Positions 12,022 to 14,761 of a stretch of 17,932 nucleotides of DNA are shown here, piece by piece. The DNA comes from a virus. Each line of letters opens with the position of its first letter. Position 1 is the stretch's first letter. The stretch lies in UHGV virus genome UHGV-1599718; one strand, written 5' to 3'. Below the pieces are notes generated by a model. The model was not told the origin of the DNA, made no database searches, and worked only from the letters and a program-made list of their open reading frames with translations. The position numbers and the translations under genes were made by a program.

Positions 12022-12285
12022 CTATTTTTGTGACTTTACTCCTGGCATATGGACTTCCCAGCGCCGAATCCCCATAGCTGCGCAAAAATCAGCCACATAA
12101 TTCAATCCCGCCCATTCGCGGATACCACCACGGGCTTTTTCAATGAAAACGGCAATCCCTTTTTTATTGAGAGCAAAAAGCCGCCAGCTTTTTGTCACTT
12201 CGTCCTGGGTAGCCACAACACAAGTGAAAGCTCCCATGCGATACAGGTCCAAGAACTCTTTGCGTGTTTTGCGTACAAGTTCCAT
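12022..12285 (-). CDS. hypothetical protein (87 aa) separated from its native RBS and promoter by the IS21 insertion
   Basis: ATG at 12285..12283 (MELVRKTRKEF...) lies 2 bp from the IS left end. When the IS and one duplication copy are removed by eye, a GAGG RBS sits about 7 nt upstream. The longer track ORF (start 12348) reads into the IS terminal repeat. Confidence 0.5.
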   Translation of the reverse strand: MELVRKTRKEFLDLYRMGAFTCVVATQDEVTKSWRLFALNKKGIAVFIEKARGGIREWAGLNYVADFCAAMGIRRWEVHMPGVKSQK

Positions 12286-12388
12286 AATGTTAGCGCCAGT
12301 GATATAAGACGGTAATTCACCATTTGGATTGTCCGCTCCACCCAACATGTTGTTTCCTTAAGGTTCCCACACCAGAAAGGACATCAAC

Positions 12389-13561
12389 ATGCTGAGCAGA
12401 GAGGACTTTTACATGATAAAGCAAATGCGCCAGCAGGGCGCGTACATTGTCGATATTGCGACTCAGATTGGTTGCTCTGAACGAACGGTCAGACGTTACC
12501 TCAAATACCCTGAACCGCCAGCCAGAAAAACCCGCCACAAAATGGTTAAGCTGAAACCGTTTATGGATTACATCGACATGCGCCTGGCAGAGAATGTCTG
12601 GAATAGCGAGGTTATCTTCGCGGAGATTAAGGCAATGGGCTATACGGGCGGACGTTCCATGCTGCGTTACTACATCCAGCCCAAACGTAAAATGCGTCCG
12701 TCAAAAAGAACAGTTCGCTTCGAAACTCAACCTGGATACCAGCTCCAGCACGACTGGGGCGAAGTTGAGGTGGAGGTTGCCGGGCAACGGTGCAAAGTTA
12801 ACTTTGCGGTTAATACGCTGGGGTTCTCCCGCCGCTTCCATGTCTTCGCCGCACCAAAACAGGATGCTGAGCATACCTACGAATCACTGGTTCGCGCCTT
12901 CCGCTACTTCGGTGGTTGTGTGAAAACGGTGCTGGTTGATAACCAGAAGGCTGCGGTGCTGAAGAATAACAACGGGAAAGTCGTGTTCAACTCCGGATTC
13001 CTGTTGCTGGCCGACCACTATAACTTCCTGCCACGGGCATGCCGTCCACGCAGGGCCAGAACAAAAGGTAAGGTTGAGCGGATGGTGAAATACCTCAAGG
13101 AGAACTTCTTCGTCCGGTACCGCAGGTTCGACAGCTTCACTCATGTCAATCAACAACTGGAGCAATGGATAGCCGATGTGGCTGACAAACGGGAACTTCG
13201 CCAGTTCAAAGAAACACCGGAACAGCGCTTCACGCTGGAGCAGGAACATCTGCGGCCGTTACCGGATACGGACTTCGATACCAGTTACTTCGACATCCGC
13301 CATGTGTCCTGGGACAGTTATATCGAGGTTGGCGGTAATCGTTACAGCGTTCCCGAAGCGCTGTGTGGTCAGCCGGTATCGATACGAATATCGCTGGATG
13401 ACGAGTTGCGGATCTACAGTAATGAGAAACTGGTGGCCTCACATCGCCTCTGTTCGGCATCGTCTGGCTGGCAGACAGTGCCGGAGCATCACGCCCCGCT
13501 CTGGCAGCAGGTCAGTCAGGTGGAACATCGGCCACTGAGTGCCTATGAGGAGCTGTTGTGA
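12389..13561 (+). CDS. istA: IS21-family transposase IstA (390 aa)
   Basis: N-terminal HTH ([22 protein letters not shown]) and a DDE-type integrase core in a 390-aa protein; AAAGGA RBS; stop overlaps the istB start. Confidence 0.9.
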
Positions 13562-14358
13562 TGCATGAGCTGGAAATCCTGCTGAATCGCCTGAAAATGG
13601 AGCATCTGAGTTATCACGTTGAAAGCCTGCTGGAACAGGCAGCTAAAAAAGAGCTGAACTACCGGGAGTTCCTGTGCATGGCGCTACAGCAGGAATGGAA
13701 CGGCAGGCATCAGCGCGGTATGGAGTCCAGGCTGAAGCAGGCTCGTCTGCCGTGGGTCAAAACGCTGGAGCAGTTCGACTTTACCTTCCAGCCGGGCATC
13801 GACCGTAAGGTTGTCCGGGAACTGGCTGGTCTGGCGTTCGTGGAGCGCAGCGAAAACGTGATCCTGCTGGGCCCTCCTGGTGTCGGAAAAACTCATCTGG
13901 CCATAGCTCTTGGCGTGAAAGCGGTGGATGCAGGACATCGGGTACTGTTTATGCCACTGGACAGACTGATCGCGACACTGATGAAAGCGAAACAGGAAAA
14001 CCGGCTGGAGCGTCAGCTACAGCAACTGAGTTATGCCCGGGTGTTGATCCTGGATGAAATAGGCTATCTGCCGATGAACAGAGAGGAAGCCAGCCTGTTC
14101 TTCCGGCTACTGAACCGTCGATATGAAAAAGCGAGCATCATACTGACGTCAAACAAAGGGTTCGCAGACTGGGGAGAAATGTTCGGAGATCACGTGCTGG
14201 CAACAGCGATACTGGATCGGCTGCTACATCACTCAACCACGCTGAATATCAAAGGAGAGAGTTACCGGTTAAAAGAGAAACGTAAAGCTGGAGTGCTGGC
14301 CAAAAACACAACGCCAATCAGTGATGATGAAATGGTGAAAAGCGGACAGCATCAGTAA
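13561..14358 (+). CDS. istB: IS21-family helper ATPase IstB (265 aa)
   Basis: Walker [10 protein letters not shown] and Walker B LILDEIGY; ATG at 13561 overlaps the istA TGA (TGATG); the track start at 13558 is GTG. Confidence 0.9.
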
Positions 14359-14443
14359 CGAAAGTATTTTAGCGGGCATGAAAATGGCAAATAACGGTTA
14401 AAAATCGTGGCGTTGACAATAACAAACCTCATATTTGCATGTT

Positions 14444-14731
14444 TCAAACATCTGTTTTGTTATCAATGAAGATTAACCCTAACCCAGCGAAGTAACACAG
14501 CAGCGCCCAGGCTGCATACGGAATGCTGGATCTGGATGTGGACTCCTTTAACATCTGCCAGTTGCGAACATTGCGACTATCTTTTAAGCCAAGTTTTTTG
14601 GCCAACTGCGAGCCGCTCATTCCGGTCAGGCCAATGACTGCCCGAACTTCTCCACACGTAGGTGATTCCCATTCATCCGCTTTTTTTAAACAAGCCGGAT
14701 TCAACATTTTTAAAACAGTATCTTTATCCAT
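14444..14731 (-). CDS. HTH DNA-binding protein with hydrophobic C-terminal segment (about 95 aa)
   Basis: ATG at 14731 with GGAG about 7 nt upstream. HTH-like segment IGLTGMSGSQLAKKLGLKDSRNVRNWQ; C-terminal IPYAAWALLCYFAGLGLIF looks like a membrane anchor. Its stop lies 25 bp from the IS21 right end. Confidence 0.5.
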   Translation of the reverse strand: MDKDTVLKMLNPACLKKADEWESPTCGEVRAVIGLTGMSGSQLAKKLGLKDSRNVRNWQMLKESTSRSSIPYAAWALLCYFAGLGLIFIDNKTDV

Positions 14732-14761
14732 AACCATCTCCATTTATTACATCTACGATGG

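Follow-up and report, generated by a model that had tools for sequence, protein, structure and literature searches.

An IS21 insertion between a KorC-family repressor gene and an 87-residue accessory gene of an Escherichia phage-plasmid: structure, rarity and probable consequences

Introduction

What happens to a two-gene operon when a mobile element lands in the short spacer between its genes, and which of the two genes bears the cost? The locus discussed here raises this question. It lies in virus genome UHGV-1599718, a 17,932-nt stretch of DNA (the window) that is part of a phage-plasmid of ~48-49 kb. In this window a copy of the insertion sequence (IS) IS21 separates a gene for a helix-turn-helix (HTH) protein, which is assigned below to the KorC family of plasmid repressors, from a small gene, p87, whose product has 87 amino acids (aa). 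A preliminary description, based on the letters of the window alone, took the insertion to be recent and suggested that the separated genes could form a toxin-antitoxin-like unit whose inactivation was selected. As argued in the following, the best explanation of the locus, and one that we hold to be clearly probable, is a recent IS21 insertion that acts as a polar knock-out of p87 and spares the repressor.

The insertion and its empty site

The left IS end lies 2 bp upstream of the p87 ATG (12285-12283) and the right end is positioned 25 bp from the stop of the HTH gene. Both ends are flanked by ATAA (Table 1). The chance probability of such a 4-bp flank match is 1/256; a chance origin is irrelevant here because the exact empty site exists. 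Removal in silico of the IS together with one ATAA yields 663 bp that align without gaps, and with 654/663 identities, to the corresponding site in Yersinia phage vB_YpM_44. In this phage the HTH gene and p87 are adjacent, with GAGGTTTGTTATG across the junction and a single ATAA. Hence, the main structural claims of the preliminary description hold at every coordinate: a 2131-bp IS21 element with TGT...ACA ends and matching terminal repeats (9/11), a 4-bp duplication, an insertion 2 bp upstream of a start codon and, on removal of the IS, a contiguous two-gene unit with its GAGG ribosome-binding site, as found in vB_YpM_44 and in related plasmids. From GAGG to the ATG there are 6 nt in the restored site.

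The empty site is common. Of the 59 plasmid records that match, 58 have it uninterrupted, as do 70 of the 71 complete Escherichia coli genomes with a match. The sole short match, CP082049, was considered as a second disrupted locus and rejected, as this record is linearised within the locus, which is thereby split at the record origin. The matching records are plasmids of ~47-52 kb that are typed as non-mobilizable, one of them from E. coli ATCC 25922. Moreover, all ten assembly contexts in a deliberately diverse set show the order repA, 95-aa gene, 23 bp, p87 and higBA, and the assembly index has this exact p87 protein in 13,060 blocks. The filled junction, on the other side, gave no match in plasmids, complete E. 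coli genomes, one-genome-per-species contigs, metagenomes or viral contigs. The tally of loci is thus more than 120 empty sites versus this single filled one.

The p87 and HTH proteins are both 100% identical in amino acid sequence to the vB_YpM_44 copies. Because the IS is 100% identical to other copies, the flanking proteins are identical and the filled junction is seen nowhere else, the insertion looks like a recent, singleton transposition event, in keeping with what had been supposed. The element is known, as is the widespread replicon, and only the site of insertion is new; this is ordinary IS traffic.

Table 1. Positions of the elements, genes and signals discussed in the text (window coordinates unless a locus is named)
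Feature	Position	Strand	Remarks
Complete IS21 copy	12288..14418	+	2131 bp, istA + istB; transcription opposite to the interrupted operon
Left terminal inverted repeat TGTTAGCGCCA	12288..12298	+	complementary to the right end at 9/11 positions
Right terminal inverted repeat	14408..14418	+	final hexamer is an outward-facing TTGACA (14413-14418)
istA, IS21 transposase, 390 aa	12389..13561	+	NF033546, 283 bits (cut-off 160)
istB, IS21 helper AAA+ ATPase, 265 aa	13561..14358	+	PF01695, 303 bits; NF038214, 302 bits (cut-off 200)
Target-site duplication ATAA, left copy	12284..12287		overlaps AT of the p87 start codon (minus strand)
Target-site duplication ATAA, right copy	14419..14422		directly outside the IS end
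p87 (PHROG 4595), 87 aa, intact	12022..12285	-	phrog_4595, E 1.8e-47; severed from ribosome-binding site, leader and promoter
IS-borne in-frame extension of p87	12286..12348	-	ATG 12348-12346; 108-aa fusion reading frame 12022-12348
Displaced p87 Shine-Dalgarno GAGG	14427..14430	-	now 2141 nt from the ATG versus 6 nt in the restored site
p87 leader	L001 9110-9150; L006-L016 ~3960-4000	- (L001)	L001 segment corresponds to window 14419-14446 + 12286-12287
KorC-family HTH repressor gene, intact	14444..14731	-	95 aa from Met 14731; phrog_8351 profile is 95 aa
Promoter-like site of the korC-like operon, TTGCCA-17-TACCAT	14758..14786	-	contains the perfect palindrome TAGGAAAAGATTTCCTA (14762-14778)
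KorC-type operator TGGGAAGAAATTTCCTA	11022..11038	-	promoter cassette upstream of a 126-aa gene, 10587-10967
KorC-type operator TGGGAAAAAATTTCCTA	2121..2137	-	promoter cassette upstream of a 355-aa DUF3560 gene, 1000-2067
HigB2/RelE-like toxin (Gp49/DUF891 family) and HTH antitoxin (HigB/HigA-like)	11131-11783	-	overlapping genes
DnaA box TGTGGATAA	15225-15233		in the 630-bp spacer downstream of repA; AT-rich stretch, 14800-15370
IncFII-type repA	15375-16361	-	
Hin/Gin-type DNA invertase and tail-fibre C-terminal fragments	16543-17932		fragments resemble Mu, P1 and P7

Anatomy and identity of the element

The element opens with TGTTAGCGCCA and closes with TGGCGTTGACA, which gives the TGT...ACA termini. 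The IstA protein carries an rve domain (PF00665) and a Mu-transposase C-terminal domain, and both IstA and IstB score above the curated NCBIfam cut-offs for the IS21 transposase and the IS21 helper ATPase. The start of istB is the ATG at 13561, overlapping the istA stop, which is also where the RefSeq annotation of identical copies begins; the program-made list of open reading frames instead begins istB at the GTG at 13558. In both IS ends a second block resembling the terminal repeat was seen by eye (CGGTAATTCACCATTT and CCGTTATTTGCCATTTT), a candidate for the repeated IstA-binding blocks (L1/L2 and R1/R2) of the family. The two-gene istA/istB arrangement, the imperfect TG...CA repeats and the short 4-bp duplication identify a member of the IS21 family. 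By annotation and dimensions the element is IS21 itself or a near-identical isoform; the RefSeq name of identical copies is "IS21-like element IS21 family". Its size, gene lengths and 4-bp duplication agree with those of IS21 itself, which is the same as IS8 of the IncP-1alpha plasmids R68/RP4 and the prototype of the family. The length of IS21, the size of its duplication and the junction promoter of tandem copies are reportedly described in work by Reimmann et al. 1989 and Berger & Haas 2001.

Among the matches listed, at least 10 plasmids carry a copy whose 100% identity spans positions 1-2131 and stops there. The boundaries also hold in independent copies, since those in plasmid CP100531 and phage fiAA91-ss have the same TGT...ACA ends as the ones proposed in the preliminary description. 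These two copies carry 4-bp duplications of their own (AGGG and AAGA, respectively), and a third site, common to CP083264 and CP074368, is without duplication.

The TTGACA hexamer at the right end is perfect and faces the antisense strand of the korC-like gene. It fits the junction promoter of tandem IS21 copies. A hybrid outward promoter formed by this hexamer and the flank was considered and rejected, as neither a scan nor inspection by eye revealed an acceptable -10 hexamer 16-18 nt into the flank. No tandem repeats were found in the window.

The upstream gene belongs to the KorC family of repressors

Which genes did the element separate? The reading frame of the HTH gene extends to an ATG at 14743 (99 aa; 14444-14743, minus strand), and the 95-aa form that starts at the internal methionine has the length of its PHROG profile. 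A tblastn search aligns the HTH protein at 51% identity (E 1e-13) with the gene annotated as korC on the IncP-1 plasmid R772, and hhalign against R772 KorC gives a probability of 99.8%, an E-value of 4.7e-28 and 50-51% identity. In an IncP-type backbone, a homologue with 52% identity takes the place of korC, following klcA-klcB and preceding kleE-korA-incC-korB. On these comparisons, the gene is that of a KorC-family repressor. In plasmids of the IncP-1 and IncU groups, KorC acts as a global repressor (PMC7314908, PMC7414963).

The AlphaFold model of the HTH protein is a compact all-alpha domain with a mean pLDDT of 84.8. The closest solved folds found by Foldseek are AcrIF24 and Aca1 (the top matches) and HipB, and the closest sequence relatives with a solved structure are the HTH domain of AcrIF24 (E 1.4e-5) and Aca3 (E 0.016). 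The preliminary description had assigned a membrane segment to this protein. This view, and with it a membrane-anchored regulator, was rejected: the hydrophobic stretch IPYAAWALLCYFAGLGLIF is conserved in IncP-type KorC homologues (19/19 residues in P0027 and 13/19 in R772 KorC), its counterpart in the HTH domain of AcrIF24 is the final helix, and it is modelled as packed helices with pLDDT values of 71-92. What had been taken for a membrane segment is thus a conserved helix at the C-terminus of a KorC/Aca-type HTH domain.

The DNA signals point in the same direction. The palindrome TAGGAAAAGATTTCCTA, which is built like a KorC operator, lies between the TTGCCA and TACCAT elements of the operon's own promoter-like site, in a position that matches TAGGGCATTTTGCCCTA of R772 klcAp/kleAp, where the operator at the equivalent spot is TAGGRCATTTTGCCCTA. 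In the Enterobacter relatives of the phage-plasmid the operator is conserved with a changed centre, TAGGAAAATATTTCCTA. The complete phage-plasmid (~49 kb) has three further sites (TGGGAAAAAATTTCCTA), each followed by a gene start at a distance of 54-55 nt; for the operator in the promoter of the repressor itself this distance is 30 nt. In total there are five operator matches in the complete phage-plasmid, one of them weaker with two mismatches, versus 0.18 expected by chance, and two of the three cassette operators fall in the window (Table 1). The three sites are part of near-identical cassettes of ~100 bp (2075-2190 and 10975-11090, both on the minus strand of the window; 43950-44066, 27138-27264 and 37027-37152 in L023). 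These cassettes align with the R772 klcA/kleA promoters over the -35 hexamer (AAAGTGCTTKAC), the operator, a CCTAA motif and the ACCGGAGA ribosome-binding site.

These results suggest that this E. coli phage-plasmid harbours a KorC regulon of the IncP kind, which is annotated in no record examined. Most likely, the HTH protein regulates four or more promoters in the manner of KorC and is not a private partner of p87.

p87 and its leader

The downstream gene is of a different kind. No match to p87 was detected in Pfam, NCBIfam, PADLOC or PDB sequences, and it has only 26 representatives among 1.84 billion proteins. Homologues with 41-52% identity occur in prophages of Scandinavium, Buttiauxella, Leclercia, Klebsiella and others, where they sit after baseplate/tail genes or in the lambdoid early region. 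Co-occurrence of the two genes breaks down from both sides. The distant p87 loci (n=11) have no HTH gene, and no KorC-like gene or operator nearby. Conversely, p87 is missing from IncP-type plasmids and from the Enterobacter phage-plasmid relatives (L020 2515-3400; L021), which keep repA, the korC-like gene and the operator and have a HicA/HicB-like pair in place of p87 and HigBA. The region downstream of the repressor is thus a variable cargo slot. As p87 and the HTH gene each occur without the other, p87 behaves as an optional phage accessory gene, not as an obligate partner, which counts against obligate toxin-antitoxin pairing. An identity as a Kle-type protein was also considered and rejected, since hhalign against R772 KleA gave no match.

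Two side observations concern the p87 reading frame. Four assembly-derived proteins (P0002, P0003, P0010 and P0029) appear as p87 "variants" of 97-171 aa that start with MFETCKYEVCYGTC; this start is the intergenic leader in another frame, and the variants look like frameshifted calls from short-read assemblies and not like real isoforms. In P0047, P0051 and L007 (3561-4270) the C-terminal 35 residues of a p87 homologue are fused to an upstream 130-aa prophage protein, which suggests recurrent deletion or recombination at the 5' end of p87 in lambdoid prophages.

In unrelated prophage contexts, members of the p87 family share a 5' leader of the form ACAAACC...TTTGTTAnnAACAAA...AGGTTTGT-N3-5-ATG. 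In its outer stem the Shine-Dalgarno region pairs with an upstream segment, and the GAGG constitutes the 3' arm of a stem that is conserved across the family. In a comparison of 12 leaders, 88% of the cells are paired versus 30-48% in slid controls, and four pairs carry compensatory changes. It is possible, with modest support from this comparison, that p87 genes carry a conserved leader that sequesters the Shine-Dalgarno sequence; it is annotated in no record examined. The intergenic hairpin of the single sequence was rejected as a significant structure (z-score -0.9, not significant). The IS21 insertion point is immediately 3' of the leader stem.

Consequences of the insertion

How does the insertion affect the two genes? 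The proposed course of events is that IS21 landed, with duplication of ATAA, in the 23 bp that separate the two genes of an operon; the replicon is a ~48-kb Escherichia phage-plasmid with an IncFII-type RepA. The KorC-like repressor gene keeps its promoter, operator, reading frame and stop, and the repressor should still function and control its regulon. In p87, by comparison, the coding sequence is parted from its promoter, Shine-Dalgarno sequence and conserved leader by 2.1 kb of antisense IS DNA. The sequence that now precedes the p87 ATG, CTGGCGCTAACATT, has no Shine-Dalgarno motif, and no promoter-like site facing p87 was found on the minus strand in 12288-12500. Because promoter, GAGG and leader are lost, and because read-through must cross 2.1 kb of untranslated antisense IS RNA with terminator-like hairpins (12441-12427 and 12748-12732), silencing of p87 is most likely, with expression predicted to be off or at trace level. 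The simplest view is a neutral or mildly deleterious accident, which may persist because a dispensable gene was hit and the regulator was spared.

Several points weigh against a plain knock-out. The promoter and terminator scans consist of consensus matches that occur at background frequency. A good Shine-Dalgarno sequence, AAGGAA (12359-12354), lies 5 nt upstream of an in-frame ATG within the IS, and read-through or a weak outward promoter could still yield an N-terminally extended p87. Moreover, the dispensability of p87 is read only from its patchy distribution, and a singleton cannot tell a neutral insertion from a selected one.

The in-frame ATG within the IS is the core of an alternative in which the insertion would rewire p87 instead of silencing it. 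Here p87 would be made as a 108-aa protein from the IS ATG at 12348 with AAGGAA as its own ribosome-binding site, and transcription would either read through from the korC-like promoter or start at an outward-facing promoter within the left IS end, with the native sequestering leader uncoupled. The reading frame 12022-12348 is indeed open and in frame, the AAGGAA precedes its ATG by 5 nt and the leader that would sequester the Shine-Dalgarno sequence has been removed. However, an open frame of 21 codons is expected by chance about once in three, the stretch scanned has no promoter-like site on the required strand, and both terminator-like hairpins are on that same strand. A 2.1-kb untranslated antisense RNA is, in addition, a typical target of Rho. 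Taken together, rewiring in this form is unlikely.

A second alternative, adaptive inactivation, starts from the regulation of p87. IncP-1 operons repressed by KorC, kilC and kilE, are lethal to the host when unregulated. By analogy, p87 might be a costly or toxic "kil"-like gene that is held in check by the KorC-like repressor, and the IS insertion would have been selected for removing that cost; the operator-bearing promoter upstream of p87 would be consistent with this idea, as is the repression of klcA by KorC (PMC7314908). Against it stand the single insertion among more than 120 intact loci and the spread of the exact p87 protein over the assembly index. Furthermore, p87 has no toxin family or fold, and its homologues occur without a KorC-like partner, which argues against a repressor needed as an antidote. 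The suggestion in the preliminary description that inactivation was selected is therefore not supported, with no sign of selection among these loci, and we regard adaptive inactivation as improbable.

Finally, a repeat-induced chimera that placed an IS21 copy here during assembly is very improbable, for although IS21-like ends occur in 2429/5426 complete E. coli genomes and assemblers will often meet this repeat, a flawless 4-bp duplication, together with an empty site that is restored exactly, is the signature of transposition and is unexpected from misassembly.

Replicon context

Other features of the window fit a phage-plasmid. The spacer between repA and the korC-like promoter, with its DnaA box and AT-rich stretch, is probably the plasmid origin. 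The HigB/HigA-like pair near p87 is a bona fide toxin-antitoxin pair, and a good promoter-like site precedes it (11839-11811). The region with the invertase and the tail-fibre fragments is probably an invertible host-range segment. The phage-plasmid also has a ParA-like gene, a CI-like repressor and an anti-repressor. A literature search on the vB_YpM_44 phage family returned papers that concern other phages.

Significance

The event itself is routine, and its value lies mainly in correct annotation. It provides a natural polar knock-out of p87, an uncharacterised and very widespread phage-plasmid gene. More interesting are two by-products of the analysis, the unannotated KorC-type regulon and the possible Shine-Dalgarno-sequestering leader of p87. 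A "hypothetical" HTH protein of an E. coli phage-plasmid family, which includes a plasmid of ATCC 25922, is recognised as a KorC homologue. The IncP-1-like promoter cassettes offer a connection, open to test, between phage-plasmids and broad-host-range plasmids in the logic by which their genes are regulated.

Comparison with known systems

The two-gene unit resembles type II toxin-antitoxin pairs in that two small genes are adjacent and one of them encodes an HTH protein. The likeness ends there: p87 belongs to no toxin family and has no toxin fold, each gene occurs without the other and the HTH protein has a putative multi-promoter regulon. The toxin-antitoxin-like unit of the preliminary description is abandoned for these reasons.

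A second comparison is with anti-CRISPR (Acr) loci and their Aca repressors. The nearest solved structures or sequences to the HTH protein are those of Aca1, Aca3 and the HTH domain at the C-terminus of AcrIF24, and its identity to KorC is much higher than to any of these three. Aca proteins, too, repress their own promoter, a strong one from which a small phage gene is expressed. In acr-aca operons, however, aca normally follows acr, and the gene order here is reversed; p87 has no similarity to any solved Acr or known anti-CRISPR protein. One could nevertheless picture an establishment module in which a strong promoter, shut by a KorC/Aca-type autorepressor, would produce p87 in a burst when the element enters a naive cell. 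The protein would then serve in anti-defence or host takeover, a role not recognised before, and its translation would be gated in addition by a conserved Shine-Dalgarno-sequestering leader hairpin that travels between phages. As a joint proposition this is doubtful. If it were true, the IS21 copy would be a natural knock-out of the anti-defence or takeover function of p87.

With respect to the element, this copy is like the prototype IS21 in its 2131 bp, its 390-aa IstA and 265-aa IstB with overlapping stop and start, its TGT...ACA ends, its 4-bp duplication and the terminal TTGACA at the right end. There is no structural difference, and only the insertion site is new.

The closest relatives of the regulatory part are the KorC systems of IncP-1 (RK2/RP4, R751 and R772) and IncU (RA3) plasmids. 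These share with the locus described here a small HTH protein (50-51% identity in the case of R772), a 17-bp TAGG...CCTA palindrome between the -35 and -10 elements and several operator-bearing promoters. Moreover, in the korC-kfrC operon of RA3 a second gene is likewise co-transcribed downstream of the repressor gene (PMC7414963). The differences are in the host, the operator and the cargo. The host is a phage-plasmid with an IncFII-type RepA and not a conjugative broad-host-range plasmid; the inner operator bases are GAAA versus GGCA; and the putative regulon comprises p87 and the 126-aa, DUF3560 and 73-aa proteins, which are unrelated to klcA and kle.

There is also a precedent for a mobile element in a korC operon. 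According to PMC7314908 (citing Kornacki et al. 1990), Tn1 is inserted in the klcA-klcB-korC operon of IncP-1alpha plasmids (RP4). In both cases a mobile element splits a korC operon and alters the transcription of its genes, probably so in the present one. Tn1 lies upstream of korC and supplies the repressor with read-through transcription, whereas IS21 in the phage-plasmid lies downstream of the repressor gene and disconnects a cargo gene.

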